In this document: piece by piece, positions 1,093-54,924 of the stretch
Numbering within the stretch: position 1 is the first letter of the stretch
How the letters are laid out: every line of letters starts with the position of its first letter
Assembly: GCA_963783335.1 (NCBI GenBank)
Contig: CAWAND010000008.1
Coordinates: forward strand, 23,841-87,840
Source of the DNA: an uncultured Chloroflexia bacterium
GTDB taxonomy: Bacteria > Chloroflexota > Anaerolineae > Anaerolineales > E44-bin32
Direction of reading: 5' to 3'
DNA: 64,000 bases
Notes under the pieces: model-generated
Seen by the model: only the letters and a program-made list of their open reading frames with translations
Databases searched by the model: none
What the model was told of the DNA's origin: nothing
Translations under genes and position numbers: made by a program

Positions 1093-1110
1093 TTGTGAAT
1101 TTTTTCACAA
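1093..1110. promoter_or_regulatory. Rex-type (CRP-like core) operator palindrome TTGTGAAttttTTCACAA, perfect
   Basis: Read directly. The full palindrome CTTGTGAA-TTTT-TTCACAAG spans 1092-1111, in the 57-nt gap between the acyl-CoA dehydrogenase stop and the etfB start. Centre is 35.5 nt upstream of the etfB start. Confidence 0.6.
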
Positions 1111-1123
1111 GCCGTCGCGTGGC

Positions 1124-2356
1124 TCAATGGGCAGCGGCGGTCTCGGGTTCCGACTGCCACGCCTCGGAGTCGTAGGCAGGGAGTTCGCATCTCAGGCTGG
1201 CATCTTTGCGCATTTCCAGCGCGTAGCCTGCCTGGATGAGGGTATGTATCTCGCTCGTGCCCTCGTAGATCACGGCACCTTTCGAATTGCGCAGGTAGCG
1301 TTCAACGTCGTATTCGGCGCTGTAACCGTAGGCACCATGGACCTGGACAGCTTCCGACGCCGCTTCGAAGGAAGCATCCGTCGCATACCATTTGGCCAGA
1401 GAAGTCTCTCGCGTGTTTCGCTGCCCCTGGTTCTTCATCCAACCCGCCCGCAGGTAAAGCAGGCGCGCCGCCTCATAGTCTTTGACCATGCGGGCGATCT
1501 TCTGCTGCACGAGTTGGTGGCGGGAGATGGGCCTGCCGAACGTTGTGCGCTCGTTGGCATACTTCACACTGGCTTCCAAGGACGCCCGAATCAGGCCGGT
1601 TGCGCCAGCCGCCACGGTGTAGCGGCCATTGTCGAGGCAAGACATGGCAATCCTGAAACCCTCGCCCTCCTCTCCCAGCCGATTTTCGACCGGGACGCGC
1701 ACGTTCTGGCAGTTCACCCAGCCAGTGGAACCAGCACGCACGCCCATCTTGTCGTGAATATCGCCCGACGTGACGCCGTCCCGCTCCGCCTCGACCACGA
1801 ACGCCGTCATGCCTTCATGCGGATCTTGCGCGTCCGGGTCTGTGACGGCGACCCACAAGAAATGGTCGGCCTTGGTCGCCAGCGAGATCCACATCTTCTC
1901 GCCGTTGATGACATACTCGTCGCCATCGCGCTTGGCTGTAGAGTTCATACTTGCCACATCGGAGCCGGCGCCCGGTTCGGTCAAGCCAAAGGCGGCGATC
2001 TTCTCACCCTTGGCCTGGGGTGCAAGAAAACGCTGCTTCTGGTCCTCGGTGCCCCATTGAAGCAGCGCCATGCTGTTGAGCCCCATGTGGACCGACATGA
2101 CCACCCTGAGGGTCGTGTCAACGGCCTCCAGTTCCTCACAGGCCAAGCCAAGGGAAATGTAGTCCATGCCCTGGCCGCCGTACCTGACAGGGATGCAGAT
2201 TCCGAGGATGCCCAGCTCACCCATGCGAGGCAGGACTTTGGGATCCATTTCCTGCTTGATGTCCCATTCCTTGATGGTCGGCTTGACCTCCTTCTGGGCA
2301 AAGTCGCGAACCATCTTCCGAACCATCTCGTGTTCTTCGGTGAGCCCAAAATCCAT
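1124..2356 (-). CDS. Acyl-CoA dehydrogenase
   Basis: 410-aa ORF MDFGLTEEHEMVRKMVRDFAQKEV...IYEGTSEIHTLIQAGYAL, with ACAD N-, middle- and C-terminal signatures. Confidence 0.9.
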   Translation of the reverse strand: MDFGLTEEHEMVRKMVRDFAQKEVKPTIKEWDIKQEMDPKVLPRMGELGILGICIPVRYGGQGMDYISLGLACEELEAVDTTLRVVMSVHMGLNSMALLQWGTEDQKQRFLAPQAKGEKIAAFGLTEPGAGSDVASMNSTAKRDGDEYVINGEKMWISLATKADHFLWVAVTDPDAQDPHEGMTAFVVEAERDGVTSGDIHDKMGVRAGSTGWVNCQNVRVPVENRLGEEGEGFRIAMSCLDNGRYTVAAGATGLIRASLEASVKYANERTTFGRPISRHQLVQQKIARMVKDYEAARLLYLRAGWMKNQGQRNTRETSLAKWYATDASFEAASEAVQVHGAYGYSAEYDVERYLRNSKGAVIYEGTSEIHTLIQAGYALEMRKDASLRCELPAYDSEAWQSEPETAAAH

Positions 2357-2467
2357 CGTCGCCTCCAGTGAAATTCGGCCCCATTATAACCCGGCGGCTT
2401 GCACCATCCTACCCGCGGCCACCTGCTTGAAATGGCCCCTGCCGCCGGTGAAGCTATAATCCCAGCC

Positions 2468-3916
2468 ATGCTCAGATCGCCTCCCGAATGGCTGGGTCGC
2501 CTCAGTCAACTGCGAGCACGCGGGCCTATGTTGGCCGTCTTGTTCCTTGGCCTGTTGGCCGCTTCCCCCACGCCCGTGGTGCGCTTCGTATCTGCCGAAC
2601 TTCGGAACGTGCGCGGTGCCCAGATCGCCGGACGCCCATCGGCGGTGCTGCAAGCCCTGACGCCCATCCTGGCACTCGAGCCCGACGCTCCCCGGATCAG
2701 GTTGGCGGCGGCTGACGCCGCTCTCAATCTCGGCCAACCCGGCGTCGCCCTCGACCACCTGCATGCGGCGGGCCTCGATGGCCAGCGCTGGAAGGCGGCT
2801 GGCTGCGTGCTCGTTCGAGCCCAGGTGGCCTCCGGTGCCGTCACCGCCTTGGGCGATGTCCTGGACCGCCTGGACCGGTTTTGCCCTTCGAATGACCCCG
2901 CCTGGCGATCTGTCGTCGCCCAGGCTCAGGCCTCGGGGGACATGCCGGCCGCCAGCCGGGCTGCCAGGGCTTGGGCCGAAGCCGACCCGGCCGATCCGGA
3001 GGCTCACTTTTACCTGGGCCTCAGCCTGGCGTTGGTCGATCCGCCAAGCGCTTTGAGCCCGCTCAAGACTGCCCAGGCGCTGTCTCCTTCGCCGTCGCCC
3101 CTCACAAGTTCCCTGGCCCAGGCCATTGAGGACTCCCTTCCGAGCGGCGACAGAGCCTACGAATTCGCCCAGGTCGGGCAGGCGCTGGCACGAACAGGAC
3201 GTTGGGATCTGGCGGCCAAGGCCTTCTCGCAGGCGGTCGAACTCTCTCCCGGGTACGTTGAAGCACGAGCTTATCTTGGTCTGGCCCTTGACCGCACGGG
3301 AGGCGATGGTCAGCAGGAACTGATCCGTGCCAGCCAGTCGGTACCATCGGCCAGTTTGCCGCACGTTTTTCTGGCGCAGCACTGGGCGCTCAAAGGTGAA
3401 CAGCAGAAGGCGGTTCAAGAGCTGCGCATTGCCCAATCCCTTCAGCCAGACAGCCCAGCCATCGCCGCCCAACTCGGCGGGGCACTCGTCGTCTTGGGGG
3501 ACCTCCAATCGGCCTTGCTCGAGTACCAGCATGCGGTTGAATTGGCGCCATCTTCCGCCGAGTTCCAGAGCTTGCTGGCCGCGTTCAGCCTTGACCACGA
3601 AATCGACGTCGCCGGTGTGGGACTCCCGGCCGCCAGACAAGCGGTCTTGCTGGAGCCAACCTCAGCCGACTACATCGACCAACTCGGTTTCAGCTACTAC
3701 CTGCATGGAAACCCCGAGATGGCAGAGCACCTTCTGGGCCAGGGGCTGCGCGCCGACCCTGTCAGCCCAGCGATCAACTACCATCTTGCCCTGGCACGTT
3801 TGGCCCTTCAGAAGACCGATTTGGCGGTCATGTCACTTCGGCAAGCCGCGGCCCTCGACCCCGGCGGCATGTATGCCATGTTGGCCACCAGGACTCTGTC
3901 CCGGCTGCAGCCCTGA
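2468..3916 (+). CDS. TPR-repeat protein with N-terminal membrane anchor
   Basis: ORF 2399..3916 contains repeated A/L/Y-rich TPR-like helices (AHFYLGLSLAL, ARAYLGLALD, INYHLALARLAL). The start is uncertain. I chose the ATG at 2468 (MLRSPPEW...) because 2399 lies only 42 nt from the divergent ACAD start. Confidence 0.6.
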   Translation: MLRSPPEWLGRLSQLRARGPMLAVLFLGLLAASPTPVVRFVSAELRNVRGAQIAGRPSAVLQALTPILALEPDAPRIRLAAADAALNLGQPGVALDHLHAAGLDGQRWKAAGCVLVRAQVASGAVTALGDVLDRLDRFCPSNDPAWRSVVAQAQASGDMPAASRAARAWAEADPADPEAHFYLGLSLALVDPPSALSPLKTAQALSPSPSPLTSSLAQAIEDSLPSGDRAYEFAQVGQALARTGRWDLAAKAFSQAVELSPGYVEARAYLGLALDRTGGDGQQELIRASQSVPSASLPHVFLAQHWALKGEQQKAVQELRIAQSLQPDSPAIAAQLGGALVVLGDLQSALLEYQHAVELAPSSAEFQSLLAAFSLDHEIDVAGVGLPAARQAVLLEPTSADYIDQLGFSYYLHGNPEMAEHLLGQGLRADPVSPAINYHLALARLALQKTDLAVMSLRQAAALDPGGMYAMLATRTLSRLQP

Positions 3917-6398: not shown

Positions 6399-6848
6399 AT
6401 GGTGACAAAAGCCACCCTCGAATCGGACCTCAAGCAAGCTATGCGCCAAAGCGACCGCTTGCTCACAAGCACGCTGCGCATGGCCCTTTCGTCGATCAAG
6501 TTGGCCGAAGTGGACAAGCAGCGGCAGCTGAACGAAGATGAGATTACGGCCATCCTGCAGCGGGAGGCCAAGTCACGGCGGGAGACCATTGAGGACGCCA
6601 AGAAAGCCAATCGGCGGGATCTCATCCAAGGTGCGGAAGCAGAGCTCGAGGTCTTGAGCACCTATCTTCCCGCCCCCTTTTCGGATTCCGAACTCGAGGC
6701 CCTGGTCCTTTCAGCCATCCAGGATGCTGGAGCTAGCGGACCCCAAGACATGGGCAAAGTCATGAGCGCCGTGATGGGCAAAGTAGGGGCCCGGGCCGAC
6801 GGCAAGCGAGTGAGTCAGATGGCGCGGCGACTGCTCGAAAGGGCTTAA
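6399..6848 (+). CDS. GatB/YqeY domain protein
   Basis: 149 aa. LKQAMRQSDRLLTSTLRMALSSIKLAEVDK ... MGKVMSAVMGKVGARADGKRVSQMARRLL is typical of YqeY. Confidence 0.85.
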   Translation: MVTKATLESDLKQAMRQSDRLLTSTLRMALSSIKLAEVDKQRQLNEDEITAILQREAKSRRETIEDAKKANRRDLIQGAEAELEVLSTYLPAPFSDSELEALVLSAIQDAGASGPQDMGKVMSAVMGKVGARADGKRVSQMARRLLERA

Positions 6849-6857
6849 GAGACTGCC

Positions 6858-9050
6858 ATGGATCAGGGTCCGGACTTCAAGCTTTCCCCCATCCGGCGGA
6901 TTCGAAACGCCTGGCACAACATCGAACTGTGGATGATCTTCTTGGCCGGGCTGATCGGGATGACGGCGGCCGTCTCCATACCCATCGCCCAACGACAATC
7001 CACCTTCGGACTCGCTGCCGGCGACGTCGCCCCCCAAGACATCCTGGCCCCCTACGCGCTTTCATACAAGAGCGATGCCCTCACTCAACAAGCCAAGCAA
7101 GCGGCGGCCAACAGCGTTAGCCCCGTCTACGACCCGCCCGACAGCCAGGTGACTCGTCGACAACTTGATGACCTCAGATCAACTCTCGACTACATCGATG
7201 CCATCCGAGCCGATGAACACGCGACAGCAGATCAGAAACTGGCAGATCTGGAGTCCCTGGCGGGGATCAAACTTGAAGGGGACACAGCTCAGGCGATACT
7301 CGAACTCCCCGAGCCGCGTTGGAAGGCGGTCAAGAGCGAAGCTGTTTCCGTGCTTGAGCAGGTGATGCGCTCAGAAATTCGTCCCGAGCGAGTTACTCAA
7401 GTCCGAAGAACGGTCCCGGCTCTGGTGAGCATCACCATGCCCCAGGATCAAGCTGACCTTGTGGTGCGATTCGTCTCCGCTTTCGTGGCACCCAACGCTC
7501 GCTTGAACGAAGAGGCCACACAGGCCGCCCGCGATGAGGCGTCACAAGCGGTGGCGCCGGTCATCAAGACCTACGCCCCCGGCGAAACGATTGTCAGCCG
7601 CGGGCAAATCGTGACCCCGCTTCAGCTCGAAGCGCTCCAGGCCTACGATCTCCTTACCCCACCCGAGCCGTGGAAAGAGATCGCCATTCGCGGATTGCTG
7701 GTGGCCGTGCTCGGGATCAGCCTGGTGATGTATGGGTTCCGAACCCACCAAGATCAGATCCGGAGCGTACGGCTGGCATCGACCATGACGGTCCTGTTGG
7801 TCGTATTCACCTTGGGCCTGCAGGTGATGGTGCCCGGGCGGACCGTGATGCCGTATATCTTCCCAGCGGCCACATTGCCTATGCTCCTGGCGGTTCTTTT
7901 CAGTCCTGGGATGGGCGTAATGGGCGCCGTTGTCAGTGGCGCTTTGGCCGGGTTCCTGGGTGCGCGCGGGCTGGAACTTGGTTTGTACATCTCCCTGAGC
8001 GGCATCATGGGAGCGCTGATGATCGGCAAGGCCGAGCGGTTGAGCACGTTCTTCTGGTCCGGCCTAAGTGCTGCCCTGGCCGCCGTGGCCATCGTCGTCA
8101 TCTTCCGCTTCCCCGATCCCGCGACCGACATGGTCGGCAAGGCCAGTTTGATGGGCGCCGGCCTGCTCAGCGGCTTCCTCTCTGCCAGCCTTGCATTCGG
8201 CCTCCTGCTCCTCGTGGGAAGCGTCGTGGGGATCACGACCAATCTGCAGTTGATCGAGCTTTCCAGGCCGGACCAGCCCCTTCTCCAGTTCATATTGCGC
8301 AACGCGCCAGGGACCTACCAGCACAGCCTGCAAGTCGCCAACCTGGCTGAACAAGCCGCCCGGGCGGTGGGCGCCAACCCTCTTCTGACCCGCGTGGGTG
8401 CGCTTTACCACGACGCCGGGAAGGCCCTCCGTCCCCAATTCTTCATTGAGAATCAAGTCGCTGGGCAAAACATCCACCAGCAACTCGACCCGGCGACCAG
8501 CGCCGGCATCATCCTGGCTCACGTCCGCGACGGCCTCGATTTGGCCAAGAAGTACCGCCTTCCAGCTCAGGTTCAAGCCTTCATCCCGGAACATCACGGA
8601 AAGATGGAGGCCAACTACCAATACCAGGCGGCGGTTGAAGCGGCCGGCGGCGATGCTTCAAAAGTCGATCGGAAGGCCTTCGCCTACCCTGGCCCGAGGC
8701 CCCGCTCCAAGGAAACCGCACTGTTGATGCTGGCGGATGGCGTAGAAGCCAAGGCACGGGCTGAGGCGCCCAAGGACGATGGGGAGATCGAAGCGCTCGT
8801 CAATTGGGTGATCCAGAATCGCCTCACAAACGGGCAGCTTGACCGCACCAATCTCACACTCAAGGACCTGGACACCATTCGCCGTTCTTTTGTCAGCACC
8901 CTGCGTGGGATCTACCATCCGCGCATTCGCTACCCTGAGCAGGACGCCCCTTCGGACTCCGATCAAACACCGGACGTGGCGCCGGCTCAAGACGGGGACG
9001 AGGCCAAATCCCCCGCCAGCCCAGCCTCACCTCAGCCGGATTCGGCATGA
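6858..9050 (+). CDS. 7TM receptor with HD/HDIG phosphohydrolase domain (PgpH/YqfF-like)
   Basis: 730 aa: extracellular N-domain, multi-TM block, C-terminal HD domain (HSLQVANLAE...LYHDAGK). Sits in the classic position upstream of ybeY-dgkA, and its stop overlaps the ybeY ATG. Confidence 0.8.
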   Translation: MDQGPDFKLSPIRRIRNAWHNIELWMIFLAGLIGMTAAVSIPIAQRQSTFGLAAGDVAPQDILAPYALSYKSDALTQQAKQAAANSVSPVYDPPDSQVTRRQLDDLRSTLDYIDAIRADEHATADQKLADLESLAGIKLEGDTAQAILELPEPRWKAVKSEAVSVLEQVMRSEIRPERVTQVRRTVPALVSITMPQDQADLVVRFVSAFVAPNARLNEEATQAARDEASQAVAPVIKTYAPGETIVSRGQIVTPLQLEALQAYDLLTPPEPWKEIAIRGLLVAVLGISLVMYGFRTHQDQIRSVRLASTMTVLLVVFTLGLQVMVPGRTVMPYIFPAATLPMLLAVLFSPGMGVMGAVVSGALAGFLGARGLELGLYISLSGIMGALMIGKAERLSTFFWSGLSAALAAVAIVVIFRFPDPATDMVGKASLMGAGLLSGFLSASLAFGLLLLVGSVVGITTNLQLIELSRPDQPLLQFILRNAPGTYQHSLQVANLAEQAARAVGANPLLTRVGALYHDAGKALRPQFFIENQVAGQNIHQQLDPATSAGIILAHVRDGLDLAKKYRLPAQVQAFIPEHHGKMEANYQYQAAVEAAGGDASKVDRKAFAYPGPRPRSKETALLMLADGVEAKARAEAPKDDGEIEALVNWVIQNRLTNGQLDRTNLTLKDLDTIRRSFVSTLRGIYHPRIRYPEQDAPSDSDQTPDVAPAQDGDEAKSPASPASPQPDSA

Positions 9051-9882: not shown

Positions 9883-9915
9883 CCTCGGACTCGGGGAGGG
9901 CCAAGGCCAACCGCG

Positions 9916-9944
9916 TTGCACCCCTCTGTCAACTGTGCGATAAT
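9916..9944 (+). promoter_or_regulatory. Sigma70-like promoter candidate TTGCAC-N17-GATAAT (with TG extension)
   Basis: Read directly in the 115-nt gap upstream of the histidine kinase gene at 9998. Confidence 0.35.
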
Positions 9945-18517: not shown

Positions 18518-18994
18518 CTACTGTCCGGCGCGTCGACGAAGGTCGTCCAGGTGCTCCTCGTCGTGTTCGAAGGTGTTGGCGGCAACTCGGTGCCAAAGGG
18601 CCATGCCGCGCAGCTCGGGAGCCAGATCCTCCCGCGCCAAATCTTCATCGGAGAACTCCAACAGGCGGATTTCGGTCTGTCGGCGCACGGCTTTCAAATC
18701 TGCCAGGATCCGCGCCAGCGGGCGACCGCCGTCAGCCGCATGCCAGTCCTGGTTGAGCTGATCTACTGGCATAGGGTCCTGCACCAGGACGCAGTCGAGT
18801 TTCCGGCCCTGAGACAACTGCCACAGCAAGGTCACCAGCTCGCCTTCCCAGCGCGCCAGGTGGGCTAGGACATCTTTGACCGTCCACCCATCGGCGTTTG
18901 GGCGCGTCGCCGCCGCCTCCGGCAGGGATTCGATGATCTTCATCACCTCCGCCCGAGTGGCTTGCATCCGTCGCATGAGCGCTGTCTTGTCCAC
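18518..18994 (-). CDS. DinB-family four-helix-bundle protein
   Basis: 158 aa. WTVKDVLAHLARWE and EHDEEHLDDL are DinB-type His-containing motifs. Confidence 0.7.
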   Translation of the reverse strand: MDKTALMRRMQATRAEVMKIIESLPEAAATRPNADGWTVKDVLAHLARWEGELVTLLWQLSQGRKLDCVLVQDPMPVDQLNQDWHAADGGRPLARILADLKAVRRQTEIRLLEFSDEDLAREDLAPELRGMALWHRVAANTFEHDEEHLDDLRRRAGQ

Positions 18995-19078: not shown

Positions 19079-19102
19079 GCATTGTGAAATATTTCACAAT
19101 GC
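19079..19102. promoter_or_regulatory. Perfect 24-bp palindrome containing Rex-type operator TTGTGAAatatTTCACAA
   Basis: GCATTGTGAAAT|ATTTCACAATGC read directly. Lies in the divergent region between the DinB gene (start 18994) and the DUF427 gene (start 19191). Confidence 0.65.
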
Positions 19103-19190: not shown

Positions 19191-19988
19191 ATGACCGCAC
19201 CCACGTTGAACGAGGACAGAGTACGGGACATATCCCAAGATGGGCACGTCCTACGGGTGGAACCCAGCCCGCGGTGGGTCCGAGGCGAGGTGAATGGTCA
19301 GACGGTGGTGGACAGCAAGCATGTACTTCTGGTCATAGCAGATCACCGCCCGCCGACCTACTACTTTCCCCGAGAGGATATTCTCGTCAGCCGCCTCCGT
19401 GCCAACGATCGGGTCGCTCACTACCCCATCCTGGGCGATACAAAGTTCTGGGATCTGCTGAGCGATGGGGTCGTGGCCGAGAACGCTGCGTTCGAACATT
19501 CTGCCCTGCCGGCTGAATTGTCTCTCCTGCGCGATCACCTGGCCTTCAAATGGGACGCCATGGACCACTGGTACGAAGAGGATGAAGAAGTCTTCGTGCA
19601 TGCCCGCAACCCCTACACCCGAATCGATGCTATCCGCAGCACCCGCCATGTCCAGGTCGAGGTCGAAGGGCAGACGGTGGCCAACTCACACGCACCCGTT
19701 CTCCTTTTCGAAACTGGCCAGCCCACTCGCTACTACCTTCCCAAAGAAGACATTCAAATGGACTGGCTGATGCCAACAGAAACTCATACCAGCTGCCCCT
19801 ACAAGGGGACGGCCAGCTACTGGAGTCTGGTCGTCGACGGCAAGGAGTATTCGGATCTTGTTTGGAGCTATCCGGATCCCATTCCTGAGGCAGGGAAAGT
19901 GAAAGGCATGTTCTGCTTCTACAACGAGAAGGTTGATATCATCGTGGACGGCGAGCGTCAGCCGAGACCTCAAACACCCTGGTCTTAG
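19191..19988 (+). CDS. Protein with two tandem DUF427 domains
   Basis: Two similar halves: PRWVRGEVNGQTVVDSKHVLLV...PPTYYFPREDI and TRHVQVEVEGQTVANSHAPVLLFETGQPTRYYLPKEDI. ATG follows GAAGGGAG. Confidence 0.7.
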   Translation: MTAPTLNEDRVRDISQDGHVLRVEPSPRWVRGEVNGQTVVDSKHVLLVIADHRPPTYYFPREDILVSRLRANDRVAHYPILGDTKFWDLLSDGVVAENAAFEHSALPAELSLLRDHLAFKWDAMDHWYEEDEEVFVHARNPYTRIDAIRSTRHVQVEVEGQTVANSHAPVLLFETGQPTRYYLPKEDIQMDWLMPTETHTSCPYKGTASYWSLVVDGKEYSDLVWSYPDPIPEAGKVKGMFCFYNEKVDIIVDGERQPRPQTPWS

Positions 19989-25597: not shown

Positions 25598-26031
25598 TCT
25601 GGTTTCCTAGAATCCCGTCGCCTTGCCTGGGACGCCATCTGGCCGGCAGCCTCGGGGTGGCTTCCCGAGCGTCCAGGCGACCTGCTCGGGGTGGTTCCTT
25701 CAAGGCCAGCGGCGTGGCTCATGACATATGAAAGAGCGTGCGGCGAGTCGGCGATCAGAAGATGGACGGCGAACATGTCGGCAGCTGGCAACACTCGCCA
25801 GAACGATCTAAGGATGATGGCAGAGCGAAGGCGTGGATTGATGGCTCCAGTGCTACCGGGGCCTGATCCCGCCGAGCGCCGCCCCTTGACGCTTGCTCCC
25901 CGGTCGAATTCCGCTGCCCGGCCCAGGATGCACAGTCTAACCCAAGTCGATGCAAAGGCCAAGGCCGTCACCCGCAGCACGCCGGGCGTTCACGCTGGCC
26001 TGTGGCAGAAGGACTGATCGAAAGCCCTGAT

Positions 26032-26049
26032 GGTGAAGGAATTCACCTA
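26032..26049. promoter_or_regulatory. Degenerate Rex-type palindrome TGGTGAAggaaTTCACCT (11/14 consensus positions)
   Basis: Read directly. Lies in the 483-nt unassigned region between ctaB and the response-regulator gene. Confidence 0.3.
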
Positions 26050-32359: not shown

Positions 32360-32494
32360 GCTGAATTCAAAACCAATTCGCCCGGCAGGGCGCTTTGAGT
32401 ATCGACCCTTCGACGGGGCGGCGTCCTTACAGCAGACTGTGGACGACCTTAGAACGACCTAAGTTCCGGCCGCGGTCGGATCGGTAGATCTAAT

Positions 32495-32512
32495 TTGTGA
32501 TGGATTTCACAA
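32495..32512. promoter_or_regulatory. Rex-type operator TTGTGATggatTTCACAA (13/14) upstream of the cox operon
   Basis: Read directly. The full palindrome arms TTTGTGA/TCACAAA span 32494-32513. Centre is about 144 nt upstream of the first possible ctaC start. Confidence 0.55.
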
Positions 32513-36793: not shown

Positions 36794-38035
36794 TTAGGCT
36801 TCTTGCGTCTCGGGTTCGGCCTTCCCGGCTTCCTCTAGCACAGTCAACCCCCCGCCGGCCTCCTTAGCCGCCCTCAGCGCCCGATTTGCCCGCTGGAAGA
36901 GACCGAGTGCGCTCTCATCTATCTTATCCACTACGGCCACGCCGGCGCTGAAATCGATTGGTTTCGAAGGATCGTATTCGCGAAGGCTCAAGGATTGAAT
37001 GTGATCTCGCAGACGGTCGATGAAGATTGTAGCGGCCTGACCCTGGGTGGCTGGCGCAAGGATGACGAACTCGTCGCCACCGTACCTGAAGATGATGTCA
37101 GCCTTCCGCAGCCGCGTGGTCAGGGCTGCGCTGAACAAACGGAGCAGGCTGTCGCCCTGTGTGTAACCCATCGTGTCATTGACTGCTTTGAAGCCGTCGA
37201 GGTCGATGAGGATCAGCGAAAATGGGAAGCCATAGCGCTGAAAGGCGCTGGTCAGCTGTGCAAGGATCACGTCGAGCCAGCGGCGATTGTACAATCCCGT
37301 CAGCGGATCTCGGATGGAGGCCTCCGCCAGACCGGCATTGAGGACGAAGGCGTTCCGTGCCTGGCTTTCCATCATAAAGGCCAGGCCAATGCCCACCACG
37401 CTGGCCGCCAGCAGCAAACCGAACATGTAGGCCAATTGGACAGGGGGCAGAGGACGGAGCAGGAGCGATTCCACCATGAACCCAATGATCACGATCGCTG
37501 AGGTGGCCGTCGTCTCAAGTACACGCAGACGCAGAAAAGCAAACGCCGACGGCAGGAGCACAAGCAGAGCCTCAAAATGCTGCGGCATGGCGGCACGCGT
37601 GGAGAGGTGAATCAATACCACCAAGGCCAGCGAGCTCACAATGAGCCCACCACTCACCACGTAGCCAAGATAGGGCTCAGCCCTCTCCCAGTAGCTGGCA
37701 AGCAGCACAAGCAGGAGGATCGGCACCGCGAGGAAGAAGCGTACGGCCCAAAGCGCCCGCCAGGCGTCGGGGCTGTTGACAAGGTCGATGAGGGCGAATA
37801 TGGCGAACGTGGCGATGCCAATCACCACCCCAATACGTCGAAATCTCAGCGTGGAGCGACCGTATCCCTCGAGGAATCTCTTTTCGACGTCGTCGTCATA
37901 GAACTGCAGACTTTGGCGCCGCATCCGATAGCGCGGATCTTCGAGTGGTCCCTCATGGCGGTCCGTCCACTCGACTGGCGACATGCCATCAGAGTCTCGC
38001 TCGTGGAATTCCTCTGGCTCGGGCTGATCGTTCAT
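36794..38035 (-). CDS. Membrane-bound diguanylate cyclase (multi-TM sensor plus GGDEF with RxxD I-site)
   Basis: This is the C-terminal two-fifths of ORF 36794..39913. Internal ATG at 38035 (MNDQPEPEEF...), about 6 TM helices, then RKADIIFRYGGDEFVIL. Confidence 0.75.
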   Translation of the reverse strand: MNDQPEPEEFHERDSDGMSPVEWTDRHEGPLEDPRYRMRRQSLQFYDDDVEKRFLEGYGRSTLRFRRIGVVIGIATFAIFALIDLVNSPDAWRALWAVRFFLAVPILLLVLLASYWERAEPYLGYVVSGGLIVSSLALVVLIHLSTRAAMPQHFEALLVLLPSAFAFLRLRVLETTATSAIVIIGFMVESLLLRPLPPVQLAYMFGLLLAASVVGIGLAFMMESQARNAFVLNAGLAEASIRDPLTGLYNRRWLDVILAQLTSAFQRYGFPFSLILIDLDGFKAVNDTMGYTQGDSLLRLFSAALTTRLRKADIIFRYGGDEFVILAPATQGQAATIFIDRLRDHIQSLSLREYDPSKPIDFSAGVAVVDKIDESALGLFQRANRALRAAKEAGGGLTVLEEAGKAEPETQEA

Positions 38036-38091
38036 CACCGGATCCTCTGCTTGCCTATCGTTCGCCCGATCGTCGCTCGCTTGACAGGGCT

Positions 38092-39913
38092 TCAGTGGTC
38101 CGAAAGAAGCTGCTCCAGTTGGTCGATGAGTTCCTGATAGGTGCGCGAAGGCCGTCTCCACCGGCTCGGGTCGGGTCATATCGATCCCAGCCAATTTAAG
38201 AGCGTCAATGGGATACAGGGAGGCACCCGCCTTCAAGAATGATTGGTAGTCATCCACGGCGTCGGAATCGCCGGCCAGGATCGGACCCGCCAGCGCATGC
38301 GCCGCCGAAATACCGGTGGCATATTGATAGACATAGTAGTCGGCATACAGGTGGCCATAGGTCGACCAATGCATGCCGTCAAGATCGTGATCGATGGCAA
38401 CTTCCCCTCCAAAGCCCTCTTCAAACAGGTCGGCCATCAAGCCGATGGCCACGTCGGCTGTCAGCCCCTGGCCGCGCTCAATCCGCTGATGGGTCTCCAG
38501 CTCAAACCTCGCCAGAAGAGGCATGGTGAAGAAATAGCGATAGAAATTGGACATCGCTTCTTCAATCAGGGTGATCTTGAAAGCCCGGTCCCGATCACTC
38601 TCAAGCAAGTGGGCGCGCACCAGGGCCTGGTGGAAATTCGAGGCCACTTCGGCCACGAAGATCGAGTACTCGGAGTACACATGCGGCTGCGTCTCCCAGG
38701 CCAGATACGAGTGCATCGAGTGGCCCAACTCATGCGCCAGCGTGCTCAGGCTGATGATCGTCTCTCCCCAACTCATCACGATGAAGGGCGGCGTGCCCTG
38801 CTCTCCAGATGAGAAAGCTCCCGAGCGTTTGCCCGGAGTGGGGTACACGTCAACCCAGCGCTCCTCGAGACAGGCCTTGCGAACCTGGGCCACGTAGGAC
38901 TCCCCCATCGGGACGAGACCCTCACAGATCATTTCTACGGCGTCCTCATAGGAGAGGCTGGGTTCCCCTCCGAGCAAGGGCGCCCAGGTATCGAAGGGAC
39001 GGAGTGTGTCGACGCCGAGGACTTCTCGCCTCAGCCGCCAGTAGCGATGCCAGGTTGGCAAATTCTTCCTGAACACATCCATCAGATTGTGAAACACGTC
39101 ACTGGGGATATTGTTGTCGAAGAGTGCCATGTCGAGTGTGCTCGCATGACGCCTGGCGCGCATGGCGAACACGTTCTTCTTGATGGAGGCCGTGAGATTG
39201 TTGATCAGAGTGTTCTTGAACTCAAGGTGACGAGCATGGTAGTTCTCCCATGCCGTCTGCCGCAGCCGGCGATCGTGGCTTCGGAGCAATCGGACCAGCG
39301 TACCCTGCGTTAGAGGGTGCTTCTCACCCTGACTGTCCTCCGCCGGAGCAAACACCATGTCGGCATTGACCAGGACGCCGTAGACGTTGGCAATGCTCCC
39401 CAGCGGATCGGCTGCCATCCCCAGCAGCTCTTCAACATCCGACGAGCGGATGTGTTCAGCCTGCCGGAAAAGGTCATCGAAGTAGTGTTTGTAGGTTTGC
39501 AGGGCAGGGTTTTCATCCATCCATACAGTCACCTGCTGGCGGCCAAGGGACAGAATCTCAGGGATCACAAAGGCCGTCGCCGCCAGATACTGAGCATACG
39601 CAGTGTCGGCTTGACCATTCATTGCAGCTGCAGCCTGGTCGGCGGTATCGACGTTGTGACACATGCTGGCGTAGACGGCGACGTGGCCAGCGCGCATATG
39701 AAGCTGATCACGCAAGGCAAGAGCCTCGGCCAAAACCCCCGAGCCTTCAGCCAGCCTCCCCTCAAGCGCCTTGAGCTTGACCAAATCGGCGATCAGGCTG
39801 TCGAGCGCCGCTTTCCAGGCCTCCGGATTGGCGAAGATGCTTTCAGGGTTCCAGCGATACCGGGCGGGGACATCGGCCCGAGATGAATACGATTGGCCGG
39901 GCACGGACTTCAC
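38092..39913 (-). pseudogene. pepF: Oligoendopeptidase F (M3B), frame broken near 38139-38150
   Basis: HELGHSMH zincin motif. After ...PEPVETAF the native tail (R)TYQELIDQLEQLLSDH-stop (TGA at 38092-38094) is in the +1 frame. The 1822-nt span is 3n+1. As assembled, the frame runs on into the GGDEF gene. Confidence 0.8.
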
Positions 39914-40022
39914 TCCTGGTTAGAGTCGGGGAACAAGAATTCCTATCCAGCATATGCCAAGCTGGCCGCCAGAACAAGCAAACGCCATCCCGGTCCCGGC
40001 GCCCAAATGAGGCGCTTGGCAG

Positions 40023-40483: not shown

Positions 40484-40501
40484 TTGTGAAAGATTTCACA
40501 A
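40484..40501. promoter_or_regulatory. Rex-type operator TTGTGAAagatTTCACAA, perfect
   Basis: Read directly in the 70-nt gap between the feoA stop and the arfB start. Centre is 41.5 nt upstream of the arfB ATG. Confidence 0.6.
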
Positions 40502-40972: not shown

Positions 40973-42965
40973 TCAGGCTCCCCAACCCAGGCTGAGTAGG
41001 ATCACACGCAATCCCCCGCCAACAGCGATGGCCAGGGGGAAGATAAATGCGAGCAAGGCGACCGTGGTCCGCCAGCCGCGCTCTTTGACGATCATCAGCA
41101 CGCTGGCGACACATGGAACAAACAAGGTGATGGTCACCATGGCCACCAGCACCTGCAATGGGCTCATCAACCCCTGTGCCTGGAGCGCGTACAGGCCGGC
41201 AGCGCCAAAGTCTCTGCGGAAGAAACCAAGCACGAGGGCCGTCGTCGCCTGCGGGGGCAAACCCAGCCAGCCTTCCACCACCGGCCGCCCTGCCCGTACG
41301 ATGGACTCGAGCACCCCGGTGCGGTCGAGCAGGAACACGGCCAGGGAGCCCAACAGGAACAGAGGCACGACCTCCCGCGCATACCACTCCAATCTGGCGG
41401 CCGTCTTGGCCAACAAGAGCCGCCATTCAGGAAGACGCAAGGGCGGGAGTTCGAGCATCAGAGGGGATGGCGAGCCCGGCATGAGTTCGACTCGAAAGCC
41501 AGCCGACGGCGAGCATGACCCCCAGTACAACCAGACCCCACACCGCCACAGCCCCGGCCGAGACAGCGGCCAGCATGCCCATCACCACACCCAGCTGAGC
41601 TGAACACGGAACAGCCAAAGCAAGAAGCAGAATTGCCAGCGTGCGCTCCCGGCGAGTTTCGAGGATGCGCGTGGTCAGCGTGGCCATGGTCACACAGCCT
41701 AGCCCAAGGACCATGGGCAAAACGGCTTTGCCATTCAGGCCCATCCGCTCAAACCAGCGGTTGGTGAGGACGGACAACCTAGGGACATAGCCGGAATCCT
41801 CGAGAACGCCGAAAGCCAAGAAGAAGGTGGTCACGATCGGCAAAATGAGCGCCACGGCATAGGTCATGCCCATCGTCCACAGCCCATACGGCCCCACCAG
41901 CAAGTCGATGATCCAGCTGCTGCCAAAGATGCTCTGCAGCAATCCCCCCAGCCAGGGATTGATCAGGCCGCCAAACAAGCCGCCCTCGAGCCAGCCCACA
42001 AGCGTCCCGGCCCCGAAGACGCCCACGAAGCCGAACATCCCCAGCATCACCAACGCCAGGATGGCCAGTCCCCAGATGGGATGAATCGCGTATCGGCCAA
42101 GCCTTTCACCCAACCCGAAGCCCGAGCCGCCGGTGTCACGGCTGACAACGCCGGTCAGTCGTTCAGCGAATGCCAAACGGGCGTGCAAGATGACATCTTC
42201 CACAGGTTCGGCGTAGGCCCGCTGCGCTCCTGCACGGATTTCCAGCATTCTGGCCATCTGCTCCGAGGGCAGCCTTTGGCGGAGCCATTCATCTGCCGCG
42301 GCATCCTGGGAGAGCCACAAGACGGCCAAGGCTCTGGCTGCCATCGGGCCCGGAGGCACGAGGCCTGCCAGATCGGCCACAGCTTTCTCGACGACCGGGG
42401 GATAGACCACCTTCGGAGCAGGGCTGCGCGCTTTATTGACCGCCGCCACCACGTCTGAGACACCCTCGCCGCGCACCGCCTGGGTCGGCACCACCGGAAC
42501 CCCCAGCCAGTGCTCCAGCGCAGCGTAGTCAACCTCCAGCCCGAGGGTTTCGGCCTCATCCGTCATGTTCAACGCCAACACCACCGGCGATCCCATTTCC
42601 AGCAGATAGGAGGTCAAGAACAACGTGCGCCGCAGATGTTTCGAGTCGCCGACCTGAACGATGGCCCGTAGCGGCTCGCGGAGCAGGACCTGGGCCGTGA
42701 CGCGTTCATCTTCCGAAATCGACGGCAGACTCACCAGACCTGGCGTGTCGATGACCATCAGATCCGGATCGGTGCGTGATGGGGCACGATGAACCTCAAC
42801 CGTCGTGCCTGGATAGTTGGCGATCTCGGCCAGGCTGCCGGTGAGCCGCTTGAAAAGGGCCGATTTTCCAACGTTGGGCTGCCCAATGAGAGCCAGCAAA
42901 CCGGATCCCGCACCGCCTAGCCCGCCGATGGGATCGGGTTCAGAGGTTGTGTGGCAGCTTGCCAT
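40973..42965 (-). pseudogene. feoB: Ferrous iron transporter FeoB, frame broken at about 41495-41497
   Basis: G-domain (LIGQPNVGKS, YPGTTVE, DTPG) and the first membrane half are in ORF 41427..43115. The continuation (R)VELMPGSPSPLMLELPPLRLPEW... is in ORF 40973..41530. The 1993-nt span is 3n+1. An AAA run lies at the junction. The ATG at 42965 overlaps the dtxR stop. Confidence 0.85.
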
Positions 42966-43663
42966 CAGAGGGCGGCTTCCGACTCGGGCGTTGGCCGAAC
43001 GAGAACATGCGCCGCAACCAATTCGCCCACCACAACCGTCTTGTTGCCCAGCGCCAACACCAGCGTCCCGTCCAATTCCTCCTTGCTTTTCAAGGTAACC
43101 ATGGCTTGTGGCCACAGCTCTCGGGCCGCAAGGTAAGCCAAGATATCGGTTCGCTCGGGCCGGATGCGCTCCACCACAGCCGACTCACCCACCGCCAGTT
43201 TCGTCAGTTCTTTGCCTTCGATGGGCACGGCCCCCGGCGTGTCAGGGATGGGATTTCCGTGGGGACAGAAGGCTGGCTGGCCCAACCAATCAGCCAGGGG
43301 CTCCGTGACGGATTGGTCCACGGCGTGCTCTAATGCGCAGGCCAGGTCGTGGACTTCGACCCACCCGATACCCAACCTGCCATGAAGAAAGCATTCCCAT
43401 AGGCGGTGTCTGCGAAGGACTTGCTGCGCCCGGCTGGATCCCAGCGGCGAGAGGCGAACGCCGCGGTAGGGCATGTGCTCGAAGAGGCCTTCCGCCTGCA
43501 GGCGGTGCACCATTTCGGTCGCCGACACAGGCGAGATATCCAGCTGGCTGGCTACGGCCGAGATTGGGACAAAGTCCCCGGCGGCCGCGAGCTCAAACAC
43601 GGTCTTGAGATACATTTCGACGCTTTCACTCAGCGCGTCGGATCGAGCTTGCGTTTCGGTCAT
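42965..43663 (-). CDS. DtxR/IdeR/MntR-family metal-dependent regulator with C-terminal FeoA/SH3-like domain
   Basis: YLKTVFEL...ISPVSATEMVHRLQAEGL...RRHRLWECFL...ALEH...CPHGNPIP. Confidence 0.85.
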   Translation of the reverse strand: MTETQARSDALSESVEMYLKTVFELAAAGDFVPISAVASQLDISPVSATEMVHRLQAEGLFEHMPYRGVRLSPLGSSRAQQVLRRHRLWECFLHGRLGIGWVEVHDLACALEHAVDQSVTEPLADWLGQPAFCPHGNPIPDTPGAVPIEGKELTKLAVGESAVVERIRPERTDILAYLAARELWPQAMVTLKSKEELDGTLVLALGNKTVVVGELVAAHVLVRPTPESEAAL

Positions 43664-46324: not shown

Positions 46325-46342
46325 ATGTGAATTTTGTCACAA
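46325..46342. promoter_or_regulatory. Rex-type palindrome ATGTGAAttttGTCACAA (12/14)
   Basis: Read directly. The core TGTGA-N6-TCACA is exact. Centre is about 90 nt upstream of the DUF362 start. Confidence 0.5.
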
Positions 46343-49108: not shown

Positions 49109-49747
49109 TTGCCCATGGACAAGCCTATGCCTTCCCTGAAAGAATTGATCGACCGGCCGTTCCGCTACTTCTACGATGACGGGCTGGTGGAGCTGGCCGT
49201 CGGCACGCTCTTCCTGGCCGCCGGGTTGGCTATCAGCGCGTGGGCAGCCACACCCGCCGGTTCCATGTGGCGGGTGGTGGGCGCGCTGCTGCTGGTGGCC
49301 ATCCCTATGCTGGGAAGCGTGCTCTTCAAACGCCTGGTCCAAAGGGTCAAGGACCGCTGGGTCCATCCGCGCACAGGCTACGTCGACTACGACGACTCCC
49401 AACCCTCCCGGGCCCGCTGGGTTGTGATCGGGGGCGCCTTGGGGCTGGCCATCGCCGGCTTCCTGCTGCCGGACCAAATCAACAATATGGCCTTGATGGA
49501 GGGCGCTCTGCTGGGGCTGATCATGGTCACGCTGGCCTATCGGGCTCGCCTGGCACGCTTCTACCTGCTGGCGACCATCGCCGCGCTGATCGGGCTGGCG
49601 GCGGCCCTTTGGCTCGGATCGGATCTGTGGGGCAGCGCCGCTACCTTCGGCGCCACCGGGGCCGTGATGATGCTTTCTGGGGGCTGTGCGCTTCGCCGAT
49701 ATTTCGTGGCCCACCCTGAGCCATCCGGGCACGGGGATGGAGCATGA
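49109..49747 (+). CDS. Hypothetical polytopic membrane protein
   Basis: 212 aa with about 6 TM helices. Its stop overlaps the start of the next gene. Confidence 0.5.
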   Translation: MPMDKPMPSLKELIDRPFRYFYDDGLVELAVGTLFLAAGLAISAWAATPAGSMWRVVGALLLVAIPMLGSVLFKRLVQRVKDRWVHPRTGYVDYDDSQPSRARWVVIGGALGLAIAGFLLPDQINNMALMEGALLGLIMVTLAYRARLARFYLLATIAALIGLAAALWLGSDLWGSAATFGATGAVMMLSGGCALRRYFVAHPEPSGHGDGA

Positions 49748-50052
49748 GCCAGCCCATCAAATCCTTGGTTGAAGCGGACCGCATCGTTCATGAGCCGGCC
49801 CGCCTGGCCATCCTGGCTCTGCTGCACTCGATTCGAGGTGCCGACTTCCTCTACCTTCAAGAGGAAACAGGGCTGACCAAAGGCAACTTGTCATCCCACT
49901 TGAGTCGATTGGAGGAGGCTGGCTTTGTCGAGATTGAGAAGACCTTTAAGGGCAAGATTCCGCGCACGATTTGCCGGATCACAGCCGACGGCCGAGTGGC
50001 CTTTGAAACTCACTGTCAGGCATTGAAGGGGATCATCGAAGCCGGAAGTTGA
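49744..50052 (+). CDS. Winged-helix DNA-binding protein (HTH_34-like transcriptional regulator)
   Basis: HEPARLAILALL...FLYLQEETGLTKGNLSSHLSRLEEAGFVEIEK. Confidence 0.7.
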   Translation: MSQPIKSLVEADRIVHEPARLAILALLHSIRGADFLYLQEETGLTKGNLSSHLSRLEEAGFVEIEKTFKGKIPRTICRITADGRVAFETHCQALKGIIEAGS

Positions 50053-50060
50053 AACCTGCC

Positions 50061-52213: not shown

Positions 52214-52238
52214 AGTCAGCTCCAACTGTTGGTTGAGT

Positions 52239-52256
52239 TTGTGAATGCTTTCACAA
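52239..52256. promoter_or_regulatory. Rex-type operator TTGTGAAtgctTTCACAA, perfect
   Basis: Read directly. Centre is 34.5 nt upstream of the SDR ATG. Confidence 0.6.
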
Positions 52257-52343
52257 ATCTCATTATCAACGACGACTCATACGGGCGCAATGCATCCAAC
52301 GGCTGTGCAACTGACCCGTGAACCGGTGGACTGTGATCGGAGG

Positions 52344-52375
52344 GAAAGAAAAAGCGGGCCCTTGCGGGGCCCGCT
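52344..52375 (-). terminator. Rho-independent terminator downstream of nrdJ
   Basis: On the minus strand: AGCGGGCCC, a 5-nt loop, GGGCCCGCT, followed by TTTTTCTTT. Confidence 0.7.
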
Positions 52376-52395
52376 TGACGGTCAGCTGTGTTCGA

Positions 52396-54889
52396 TCAAC
52401 ATTCACTGTAACCGCACGAGTAGCACTTTCGACAGCCTTCTTCGTTCACCACCCCGGCGGCGCCGCATTCGGGGCACAGATCGCCGATGGTCATCGGGAT
52501 CTGGGACGGGGCTTCGGCCGGCATACTTGTTATGCCGCTCTCAGGCGTGTCGCCCAGGTAGCCCGCCAGCGCCTGAGCGACGCCGTCAGGCAAGGAAAGC
52601 ACCCGGTTGGGGCCAAACCCGAGTGGCCGGCCACCGCCTATTCCGGAAAGCTGGCGGACGATTTCGGCCAGTCGATCGCGCGGCGGCACCGGCGAAGCGA
52701 TGCGCAAGACGTAGGACGCCATCCGCCCGATGGCCTCGGAAATGGCCGCCGTTTCGGACCCGGCCTTGGCGGTGGTGATGAAGACCTCAAAGGGTTGCCC
52801 CCCACCGTTTTCGTTGATGGTGACAAAGGCTTTGCCCAACGGAGTGTTGATCTGGTAGGTGGCACCATCCAAGCGCGAAGGGCGCGGTTTCTTGCGTTCG
52901 TTCCAGATTTGGAGTTGACTGGCTGCCGTGTCGGGTGCCGAGTTCAGCGGCGGTCTTCTTGTCGGCCGTGGCCTTGGTTTCCAGGACGACTTTCTGGCGT
53001 GAGCCGGTGACGTAAACCGTCAGGCCCTTGCAGCCCAGTTCCCAGGCCAACAGATAGGCTCGGGCGACATCGTCTTCCGAGGCACCCTCCGGGAAGTTGC
53101 ACGTCTTGCTGATGCTGTTGTCAACGAAGGCCTGCATGGCGGCTTGCATCCGAACGTGCTCTTTGGCGCTGATGTCTGATGAGACGACAAAGCTGTGGCG
53201 GACCTCCGGCGGGATCAGTTCGACATTCTGGCAGGAACCCTTGGCCATCACCTGCTCCACGGCCGCCTGGCGCTGCTCATCATCCAGACCCGCGTCGATG
53301 AGCGCCTTCTCAAACAAGGGGCTGGTGTAGGTCAGCCTCAAGTCCTCACCGTGATCGTTGACATGCCGGTAGTAGGCCAAGGCGAAAACGGGCTCGCACC
53401 CATAGCCCTCGCAGCCGGCAACGGTGGCAATCGTCCCTGTGGGAGCGATGGTCGTCTGGGCAGCATTGCGAATGCCGTGCGACTTGATCCCTGCCTCCAC
53501 CTTGTCCCAATCGACGCTTGGGCGTTGGTACTCGTAGCTGTAGGGGATCAATGGCTCAGGAGCCGTCCACTTCAAATCGTCCGGATCGTACAGGCTGCCT
53601 TCGATGGCCGGGAACGGCCCGCGGGCCTCGGCCAGGCCCACGCTGGCAAGCATCGAGTGATAGCGAACAAACTCCATCACCTGGGCGGCGAAGTCTTGGG
53701 CTTCATCCGAGCCATAGCGAACACCGACGTGGTACATCAGGTCGCCCAATCCCATGATTCCCAACCCGATACGACGGGCGCGCAGGCCGGCTTCCTTCAG
53801 CTGCGGGACCGCTGGAACATAGGCATTGACGGTGACCACGTTATCCAGGAAATGCGTACTGAGAACCACGCTCTGGCGAAGCTTCTCCCAATCGACGGTG
53901 CCGTCCGGCCCCAGGTGCTGGGCCAGGTTGACGGAGCCCAAGCAGCAGTTCTCATAGGGGCCCAACCACTGCTCGCCGCAGGGGTTGGTGGCTTCCAAGT
54001 CATATAGATGCGGCACCGGGTTGGTGCGGTTGGCGGCATCCAAGAAGAGCATTCCGGGCTCGCCGTTGTGATGCGCGTGGGTGACGATCAGATCAAATAT
54101 CTCCCGAGCCCGAGCCTGCTCGACCACCTCACCCGTGTTGGGAGCGACCAGGTCGTAGGTCGAATCGTTGGCTACGGCTTCCATGAAGGTGTCTGTGACC
54201 CCGACCGAAATGTTGAAGTTGGTGATCTGATTTTCGTCGACCTTGCAGGTGATGAATTCGCGGATGTCCGGATGATCCACCCTCAGCACGGCCATGTTGG
54301 CTCCGCGCCGCGTCCCGCCCTGGGCGACCTCCCCAAAGGCCTTGTCATACACTCGCAGAAATCCAACCGGGCCGGTGGCGCGACCCATCGACGATTTGAC
54401 CACCGAGCCCTTGTGACGCAGCCGGCTGAATGAAAAACCGTTTCCCCCACCAGTTTGCTGGATCAGAGCCGCGTCGCGCAGAGTCTGAAAAATCCCCGAG
54501 GAATCGCGGCCCATGTCATCGTTGATCGGAAGCACAAAGCAGGCGGCCAGCTGGCCCAGGGGCGTCCCCGCGCCGGTAAAGGTCGGCGAATTGGGAAAGA
54601 AGCGCTTGGTGGTCAGCAGCTTGTAAAATGCTTCGGCCACGGGCTCCACCGGCGCATCGTGGACGGATTCGGCGGCGGCCACATGCCACGCAACCCGCCA
54701 GAACATCTCTTCGACAGTTTCCGCCGGTTCGCCGTCCGGCGAACGCCGAAGATAGCGTTTAGAAAGCACGGTGCGGGCGTTGTCGCTCAGGTCAACCGAA
54801 TCGAGATCTTCTGGCAGGCCGGGCCGCTCCGGCATCCGGATTTGTGCCTCGTGACGCACATCGATGTCCTTCTTGTCGGTTTCCAACAT
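52396..54889 (-). pseudogene. nrdJ: Adenosylcobalamin-dependent (class II) ribonucleotide reductase, frame broken within about 52885-52945
   Basis: ORF 52787..54925 carries the catalytic core (NPCGEQ..., [12 protein letters not shown]). The C-terminal part ...[32 protein letters not shown]...CPECG...CRKCYSCGYSEC is in the +1 frame (ORF 52396..52872). The 2494-nt span is 3n+1. ATG at 54889 follows GGGAGG. Confidence 0.85.
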
Positions 54890-54906
54890 CCGCCTGCCTC
54901 CCTCAC

Positions 54907-54924
54907 TTGTGAAGAATCTCACCA
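54907..54924. promoter_or_regulatory. Rex-type palindrome TTGTGAAgaatCTCACCA (12/14) upstream of nrdJ
   Basis: Read directly. The left half is perfect. Centre is 26.5 nt upstream of the nrdJ ATG. Confidence 0.4.

Follow-up and report, generated by a model that had tools for sequence, protein, structure and literature searches.

A conserved set of intergenic 18-bp palindromes resembling Rex operators in an Anaerolineae-like Chloroflexota bacterium

The operator of Rex, an NADH/NAD+-sensing repressor, has been described in Staphylococcus aureus as TTGTGAAW4TTCACAA, in which positions 4 and 5 are critical, positions 1 and 7 are often mismatched and an A/T-rich spacer is required (PMC2883068). 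A passage of a second paper (PMC6391272, citing Ravcheev 2012) gives the generalised Rex operator consensus as TTGTGAANNNNTTCACAA, and a passage of a third (PMC6682613, citing Ravcheev 2012) reports Rex orthologues for Chloroflexi. The published lists of Rex sites comprise 54 in S. aureus, counted with up to three mismatches (PMC2883068), and 63 predicted ones in C. bescii (PMC6391272). Here, a 64,000-nucleotide stretch of DNA from an uncultured Chloroflexia bacterium (NCBI GenBank assembly GCA_963783335.1, contig CAWAND010000008.1, positions 23,841–87,840 of the forward strand; the whole stretch is called the window) was analysed, in which an earlier note had claimed eight intergenic copies of the 18-bp palindrome TTGTGAA-N4-TTCACAA and had taken them as a regulon of the Rex or CRP type. 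We found that seven of these palindromes occur far above chance, that their half-sites are conserved in related genomes, and that their sequence matches the Rex operator in its invariant as well as its tolerant positions.

The exact core TGTGA-N6-TCACA was found six times in the window (at 1094, 19083, 32496, 40485, 46326 and 52240), which is to be compared with 0.06 expected in dinucleotide-preserving shuffles. The complete 18-mer TTGTGAA-N4-TTCACAA occurred seven times with up to two mismatches (0.08 expected) and nine times with up to three (1.13 expected), and the shorter core GTGA-N6-TCAC was present in nine copies (0.99 expected). When DNA from other Chloroflexota and related sources (1.32 Mb) was taken as the empirical background, matches per 64 kb amounted to ~0.3 with up to two mismatches, ~1.7 with three and 14.5 with four, the corresponding numbers in the window being 7, 2 and 9. 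The mismatch spectrum was bimodal, with four, one and two sites having none, one and two mismatches, respectively, and background levels beyond that. The genes of the window (GC content 61%) were mapped by a self-trained codon-usage call of open reading frames (ORFs) combined with Pfam and NCBIfam, and the stop-to-stop ORFs so called span 87% of it; all eight sites nevertheless lie between genes, at 17–433 nt 5′ of a start codon, and the motif was not above chance in the coding DNA. The lone heptamer was not enriched either (three copies outside the palindromes, 4.9 expected), so the unit is a dimer site. The same count excluded an uptake-sequence-like word, and parS, ARG-box, NrdR-box and LexA-box were ruled out because their consensus sequences differ in half-site order or spacing.

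We considered at this point whether an A/T-rich palindrome might have clustered by chance in intergenic DNA, which is A/T-richer. Such clustering would account for the two matches with three mismatches (26031 and 39087) taken by themselves, as these stand at the background frequency, and the match at 39087, which is inside a gene and consistent with chance, was treated as such. For the seven strong sites, however, chance is refuted by their number and by the 92% identity of their half-sites among orthologues described below, and it retains practically no probability as an account of the set. The site at 26031 was counted as a member because its orthologue in one of the relatives is perfect. 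The claim of eight intergenic copies was therefore borne out, seven by being far above chance and the eighth, which by count is at chance level, through orthology. The earlier note was also right on the match counts (four perfect sites, 13/14 at the cox site, 12/14 at the DUF362 and nrdJ sites and 11/14 at the response-regulator site), on the gene neighbours of the sites, which the Pfam/NCBIfam map confirmed, and on its estimate that the six exact cores should number well under one by chance; the comparison of genic and intergenic frequencies that it had proposed came out in favour of the set. Its positions hold for seven sites, and the 11/14 site is at 26031–26048 instead of 26032–26049.

The conservation of the sites was examined by footprinting against three syntenic relatives. 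The relatives are metagenome-assembled genomes carrying the labels Chloroflexia, Anaerolineae or Anaerolineales. The first (L002/L173) is one 295-kb contig with a DUF362 protein 86% identical to that of the window and a nucleotide identity of 73–78%, and it covers the window from 56354 down to ~22000. The second (L163/L172) is one 59.7-kb JGI contig with EtfB and COX2 each 81% identical, and the third (L167/L171) is one 36-kb Logan contig with EtfB 75% and the histidine kinase 87% identical; both correspond to the left half of the window. A fourth assembly, L001 (GCA_049588275.1), has a COX1 protein identical to that of the window and a nucleotide identity of 99.7%. The genome scan with DUF362 yielded one close relative (L002), and its remaining 79 loci were used for the background; among the matches listed from the metagenome scan with EtfB, relatives with 40–49% identity were of no use for footprinting. 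Exact-protein searches gave no record for ArfB, the acyl-CoA dehydrogenase or the EtfB of the window, and for Ddl they led to a contig of 2.6 kb.

Every site was found to have an orthologous copy in at least one of the three relatives, and the earlier proposal that conservation be checked in related genomes thus gave a positive answer. Over eleven window–relative pairs, 142 of the 154 half-site positions were identical (92%), compared with 21 of 44 in the spacer (48%) and 578 of 925 in the 40-nt flanks (62%); the difference between half-sites and spacer or flanks gave a Fisher p of ~3e-15, in which the pairs are not independent. The distance from the site to the start codon or to a −10-like element was mostly kept as well, for instance 26 nt at etfB in three genomes and 17 nt at nrdJ in two. 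Purifying selection acts on the two 7-bp half-sites, and the 4-bp spacer and the flanks drift. Conserved half-sites around a drifting spacer are the signature that would be expected of a dimeric protein reading double-stranded DNA. Taken together, the counts and the footprints support the seven strong palindromes as a real, selected set of putative binding sites for a dimeric DNA-binding protein, and this assignment is made from sequence comparison.

The same alignments bear on the possibility that the palindrome acts as an RNA or single-strand hairpin, such as a stem-loop in a 5′ untranslated or intercistronic region, or is a REP-like mobile repeat. The etfB, SDR and nrdJ sites are located just 5′ of a ribosome-binding site in probable transcripts, and the response-regulator site of the window has T2>G paired with A17>C, the one symmetric double change noticed. 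However, at −2.5 to −5 kcal/mol the stem is weak, the other changes at stem positions mostly break a pair without compensation, no Rfam match reached the gathering score in the window, and the arfB and DinB/DUF427 sites are 5′ of conserved −10-like elements and so probably untranscribed. A tRNA scan of the window was empty. The presence of the sites at orthologous positions in four genomes, with a single copy per gap and no similarity past the 18 bp, argues against a mobile repeat. We consider this pair of explanations very improbable.

The sites themselves are located as follows, with promoter positions assigned by eye and conservation as their backing. The etfB site (1093–1110; perfect, TTGTGAATTTTTTCACAA) lies between the stop codon of an acyl-CoA dehydrogenase gene (acd; stop at 1124) and the TTG start of etfB (1066), 14 nt past the former and 26 nt from the latter, and from its upstream side it adjoins an AGGAGG ribosome-binding site; its copies at L163:9957 and L167:9957 are perfect and stand at the same 26 nt from the start, with a different spacer. 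The nrdJ site (54907–54924; two mismatches) is similarly placed, with the stop codon of nrdR at 55028 on one side and the ATG of nrdJ at 54889 on the other; the identity of nrdJ is supported by a TIGR02504 match above the cut-off. The ATG follows 17 nt after the site, which adjoins a GGGAGG ribosome-binding site, and the copy at L002:1430 has two mismatches and the same 17-nt distance. These two sites (acd|etfB and nrdR|nrdJ) may be inside operons.

The arfB site (40484–40501; perfect) is 20 nt past the stop codon of a FeoA-domain gene and 32 nt 5′ of the ATG (40451) of arfB, which was identified by an NF006718 match above the cut-off. It is followed after 20 nt by a conserved TG-extended −10-like element, TGATAAGCT, and after a further 6 nt by the ATG, which suggests, by eye, that the arfB mRNA is leaderless and that the site is centred near −41.5. 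The orthologous copy (L002:16161 = L173:1430) has one mismatch, and the 20-nt gap to TAAGCT is kept. The DUF362 site (46325–46342; two mismatches) is found 52 nt past the stop of a DinB/MDMPI gene and 81 nt 5′ of the GTG start of the DUF362 gene (46243); an aligned, weaker copy, ATGTGACAAATTCCACAT, forms an island of conservation at L002:9896, and the 22 nt to TAGTCT/TAAGCT before the gene are kept between the genomes. The SDR site (52239–52256; perfect) precedes a short-chain dehydrogenase (SDR) gene, whose ATG (52213) follows after 25 nt, and lies past the nrdJ terminator, which is located upstream of the site at 52376–52352. It begins 5 nt past a conserved promoter-like TTGCGC-17-GATAAT and would cover the transcription start, if this promoter, read by eye and from conservation, is the one in use; the copy at L002:4089 has one mismatch and the same geometry, TTGCCC-17-GATAAT-5 nt.

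The cox site (32495–32512, minus strand, TTGTGAAATCCATCACAA; one mismatch) heads a caa3-type cox operon; a BNR-repeat gene has its stop codon 22 nt before the site, and the ctaC ATG (32326) lies 168 nt past it. An identical 18-mer is present in L001, L172:991 and L173:9823 with diverged flanks, and the gap to the −10-like element varies from 41 to 44 nt. The same 18-mer, spacer included, was also observed at both the arfB and the cox site of the L002/L173 genome (L002:16161 = L173:1430, and L173:9823). Several loci share a spacer of ATCC or ATCT when read on the strand of the gene that follows; the numbers are small, and this might be an orientation bias. The DinB/DUF427 site (19082–19099; perfect) occupies a divergent gap between a DinB-superfamily gene (18518–18994, minus strand) and a two-domain DUF427 gene (19191–19988, plus strand), 87 and 91 nt away, respectively. 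Its copy at L171:18676 is perfect, −10-like elements (TATATT/TATACT) lie 34/33 nt downstream on the DUF427 side, and on the DinB side the gap to the −10-like element varies (44 vs 53 nt). The response-regulator site (26031–26048, minus strand, AGGTGAATTCCTTCACCA; three mismatches) is 33 nt past the stop of ctaB/UbiA and 433 nt 5′ of the start (25597) of an OmpR-type response regulator gene. With orthologues that are perfect at L172:7457 and have one mismatch at L173:16366, it is best taken as a decayed member of the set and not as noise.

The palindrome agrees with the generalised Rex consensus in being an inverted repeat with a GTG/CAC core and an A/T-rich spacer. Among 21 site variants, G3-T4-G5-A6 and their partners (GTGA/TCAC) were invariant, the changes being at positions 1, 2, 7 and 12; the TT at positions 1 and 2 was kept in 19 and 17 of the variants and the A at position 7 in 16. 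The spacers in the window are ~75% A/T, compared with 61% GC in the genome. The likeness to the Rex operator that the earlier note had seen thus stood up, as the palindrome equals the published consensus and the invariant and tolerant positions fall likewise. Its view that the targets fit redox control holds for acd-etfBA, the caa3 oxidase and the SDR gene, and it does not extend to arfB, nrdJ, DUF362, DinB and DUF427. The acd-etfBA genes and the terminal oxidase are classical Rex targets, and by NCBIfam/Pfam acd-etfBA resembles the NADH-linked Bcd/Etf type. We therefore regard it as somewhat probable that the palindromes are operators of one homodimeric protein, likeliest a Rex-family NADH/NAD+-sensing repressor, in an Anaerolineae-like Chloroflexota host from the sediment of a salt marsh.

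The inner core is at the same time the half-site arrangement of CRP/GlxR, as had also been pointed out, with an exact TGTGA-N6-TCACA at six sites. A CRP/FNR-family dimer of the CRP/GlxR type could then be a global dual regulator, activating from around −41.5 and from −55 to −75 and repressing over the transcription start. Activators would be expected at sites centred near −41.5, −61.5 or −72.5. By eye, the arfB promoter would be leaderless, with a TG-extended −10 but lacking a −35, and its site would be near −41.5; the DUF362 site would be near −43.5 and the cox, DinB and DUF427 sites at −55 to −75, which would suit such a protein, and the SDR site would lie over the transcription start. One site per 9 kb is also closer to a global regulator than to a typical Rex regulon. 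The CRP-type consensus prefers A before TGTGA and has no strong A after it. Here, the TT at positions 1–2 and the A at position 7, which are outside the CRP core, are conserved about as a Rex operator predicts, and near-perfect sites are unusual in CRP regulons. Besides this, the positions were read by eye, the cox gap varies (41–44 nt, as given above), and no CRP/FNR-family protein (cNMP-binding/HTH_Crp) was found in the 64-kb window or in the loci of the relatives. A CRP-type regulator is possible but doubtful; the assignment to Rex in place of CRP is partly supported, through motif detail and target genes.

Two genes of the window were considered as the cognate regulator, and neither is supported. 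The small HTH_34 winged-helix gene (49720–50049) lacks a palindrome on its 5′ side, and response regulators of the OmpR type bind direct repeats. A rex gene (N-terminal winged helix PF06971 with a Rossmann NAD(H) domain) was searched by Pfam and by tblastn with B. subtilis Rex (PDB 2VT2) in 2.2 Mb of DNA including the window and the loci of the relatives, and the only Rex found was in four low-GC Clostridia-like loci from the EtfB matches listed.

Several observations weigh against a Rex repressor and have to be set beside the motif. No rex gene was found within the 64-kb window or ~100 kb of the relatives' DNA. At ~1 per 9 kb, in the window as well as in each of the relatives, the sites occupy about a fifth of the intergenic regions, which is 5–6 times the density of the published Rex site lists; the density in the relatives is not independent, since their regions are syntenic with the window and ~10 kb of new territory held one site. 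The targets arfB, nrdJ, DUF362, DinB and DUF427 are atypical for Rex. The DinB, DUF427 and cox sites are 55–75 bp 5′ of −10-like elements, which suits an activator over a repressor, and a strict sigma-70 scan gave no promoter in the regions of the arfB, SDR and DinB/DUF427 sites. The metatranscriptome contigs were too sparse for transcript starts, with one read spanning the SDR site. In two relatives a conserved site is present in a convergent 3′–3′ gap, 6 nt past the stop codon of a metallophosphoesterase gene; beyond it come a terminator-like hairpin and, on the opposite strand, a tRNA-Arg(CCG) gene with its 3′ end towards the site. This placement leaves no promoter that could be controlled from the site. 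The motif is also missing from two loci of conserved order. In 21 kb of L174 (COX2 65% identical, the same cox/response-regulator/kinase/cupredoxin synteny, 60% GC), no match had fewer than four mismatches, and in L169 (EtfB 73% identical, synteny kept) the palindrome is absent. The DUF362 orthologues in the 79 more distant loci likewise have no upstream palindrome. By these comparisons the palindrome set appears to be confined to a narrow Chloroflexota clade. The word regulon, used for the set in the earlier note, is to be taken with caution: several sites are intercistronic, and one is between two 3′ ends in the relatives.

Such placements would be explained if another clade-specific DNA-binding protein with a Rex-like palindrome had a mainly global or architectural role, acting as roadblocks or insulation at gene boundaries. 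The high density, the very large proportion of perfect sites and the narrow clade agree with this, as do the short distances past stop codons (acd 14, feoA 20, BNR 22 and ctaB 33 nt, and 6 nt at the metallophosphoesterase gene in the relatives), the conserved case between two 3′ ends and the presence of a site at either end of the cox operon. However, short gaps put any site near a stop codon, and the site in the divergent DinB/DUF427 gap has no stop codon nearby. The constant distance to the next start codon or −10-like element speaks for a link with the gene that follows, and since the palindrome is identical to an operator consensus of wide conservation, a known family is the simpler assumption. 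A mainly architectural protein was judged unlikely.

If the Rex-family repressor is the right reading, its dimer would be bound at the eight palindromes when NADH is low. The bound dimer would block the promoters of the SDR gene (over the predicted start) and of arfB and DUF362 (over the −35 region), and would act as a roadblock within the transcripts at acd|etfB and nrdR|nrdJ. A rise in NADH, for example under oxygen limitation, would release the protein from its sites and thereby derepress EtfBA, the partner of the Bcd/Etf-like acyl-CoA dehydrogenase, together with the caa3 oxidase operon, the NAD(P) oxidoreductase, nrdJ, arfB and others. The palindrome set would have arisen, or greatly expanded, in the ancestor of the narrow clade.

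The sequence was found in metagenome runs from salt marsh, wetland and soil and in a few metatranscriptomes. Metagenome occurrence and a report of abundant Anaerolineae with aerobic respiration in salt-marsh rhizospheres (PMC11748557) place the organism at oxic–anoxic interfaces. Anaerolineae dominate these rhizospheres across steep oxygen gradients. A joint redox response of the terminal oxidase, Etf-linked acyl-CoA oxidation, the B12-dependent ribonucleotide reductase and ribosome rescue is predicted from the targets. To our knowledge, nothing is known about gene regulation in Anaerolineae, and a conserved and readily recognised operator set would offer a direct handle on it. If the density of the window holds genome-wide, a normally small regulon would have grown global within a single clade. 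Tentatively, we suggest as a possibility that a Rex-type protein, or an unrelated one with the same palindrome, has turned into a global factor with several hundred near-perfect operators, many of them serving, in place of classical promoter control, as roadblocks or insulators in intercistronic and 3′-terminal positions; such a factor would tie ribosome rescue by arfB, deoxynucleotide supply by nrdJ and respiration to one signal.

Further features were observed near the sites. The region 5′ of ctaC (~32405–32425, minus strand) contains a direct repeat, TTAGGTCGTTC TAAGGTCGTCC, with 11-bp spacing, which is identical in three genomes (the window, L172 ~1065–1090 and L173 ~9890–9915) and is recognisable as TAAGGTGACGA TTAGGTGGAAC at L174 ~9905–9930, though the palindrome is missing there. 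A similar half, CTTAGATCGTTCT, is present 5′ of the OmpR-type regulator gene, and the repeat looks like a putative site for this response regulator, which is encoded just downstream of the cox operon. The ~430-nt gap from ctaB to the response regulator gene (25600–26030, minus strand) has a conserved promoter-like TTGGCC-17-TAGACT (TACACT in L172) ~60 nt past the palindrome, followed by a long untranslated or unannotated leader. The region 5′ of nrdR (55510–55600, minus strand) has a promoter-like, TG-extended TTGCAG-17-TAGAAT and then two AGATAT-centred boxes ~30 nt apart; these may be NrdR boxes, by which nrdR-nrdJ would be autoregulated besides the palindrome between the genes.

Several genes of the window look frameshifted. 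The etfB gene (359–1087) encodes an EtfB of 235 aa, only 70% of which aligned, compared with 260 aa in all the relatives; ctaC is one A short in an AAA run at ~31412 when compared with L001, and its cytochrome c domain is truncated as a result; feoB is divided between two ORFs (40973–43184); and the C-terminal CxxC tail of nrdJ is in another frame (52396–52872 vs 52787–54889). These frameshifts are probably assembly indel errors and not pseudogenes. A 1,039-aa fusion protein encoded at 36797–39919 joins an M3 oligopeptidase-F domain to a GGDEF diguanylate cyclase domain at the C terminus, and the corresponding region of L173 is broken into several ORFs.

Compared with known systems, the palindromes share with REP/BIME elements that they are short, intergenic, often just past stop codons and lineage-specific. 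REP/BIME palindromes are imperfect, G+C-rich, 20–40 nt long, often clustered and variable in presence, whereas those described here are 18 bp with a weak A/T-rich stem and one per gap, and they keep orthologous positions over ~25% nucleotide divergence with half-sites conserved and no compensatory change. With the CRP/GlxR sites they have in common the identical 5+6+5 core, a possible class II-like geometry at arfB and the density of a global regulator, and they differ in the conservation of positions 1–2 and 7 outside the core and in a very high share of perfect sites. The closest likeness is to the Rex operators (ROP) of Streptomyces coelicolor/avermitilis, Bacillus subtilis and S. aureus, whose 18-bp consensus, A/T-rich spacer and distribution of invariant and tolerant positions are the same (PMC2883068, PMC6391272); a respiratory oxidase and an NAD(P)-linked oxidoreductase among the putative targets are a further likeness, and Rex operators overlap promoters or 5′ regions, as the sites of the window may do. 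The set in the window is ~5–6 times denser than these, has atypical targets, is in part intercistronic and belongs to a narrow clade, and the DNA searched around it holds no rex.

An acyl-CoA dehydrogenase together with EtfBA and a Rex-type box is also known from the clostridial rex-crt-bcd-etfBA clusters. The four loci in which Rex was found (L088, L091, L093 and L132, ~6700–7900; GC 28–31%) are of this kind, having, among the matches listed, rex 2.5–3 kb 5′ of etfB and a Clostridial-type Rex box, TTGTTATATTATTAACAA, with variants (TTGTTA..TAACAA) directly after rex. On an unrelated metagenome contig, a one-mismatch Rex-type box, TTGTGAAATTATTAACAA, was observed at L085:3913, 181 bp 5′ of an etfB that is 47% identical to that of the window. 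In the clostridial clusters the box comes just after the adjacent rex and ahead of the genes preceding etfB, and its consensus differs at two positions, whereas in the window the box is between acd and etfB with no rex nearby; these clusters illustrate that the link of Rex to the etf genes is old.

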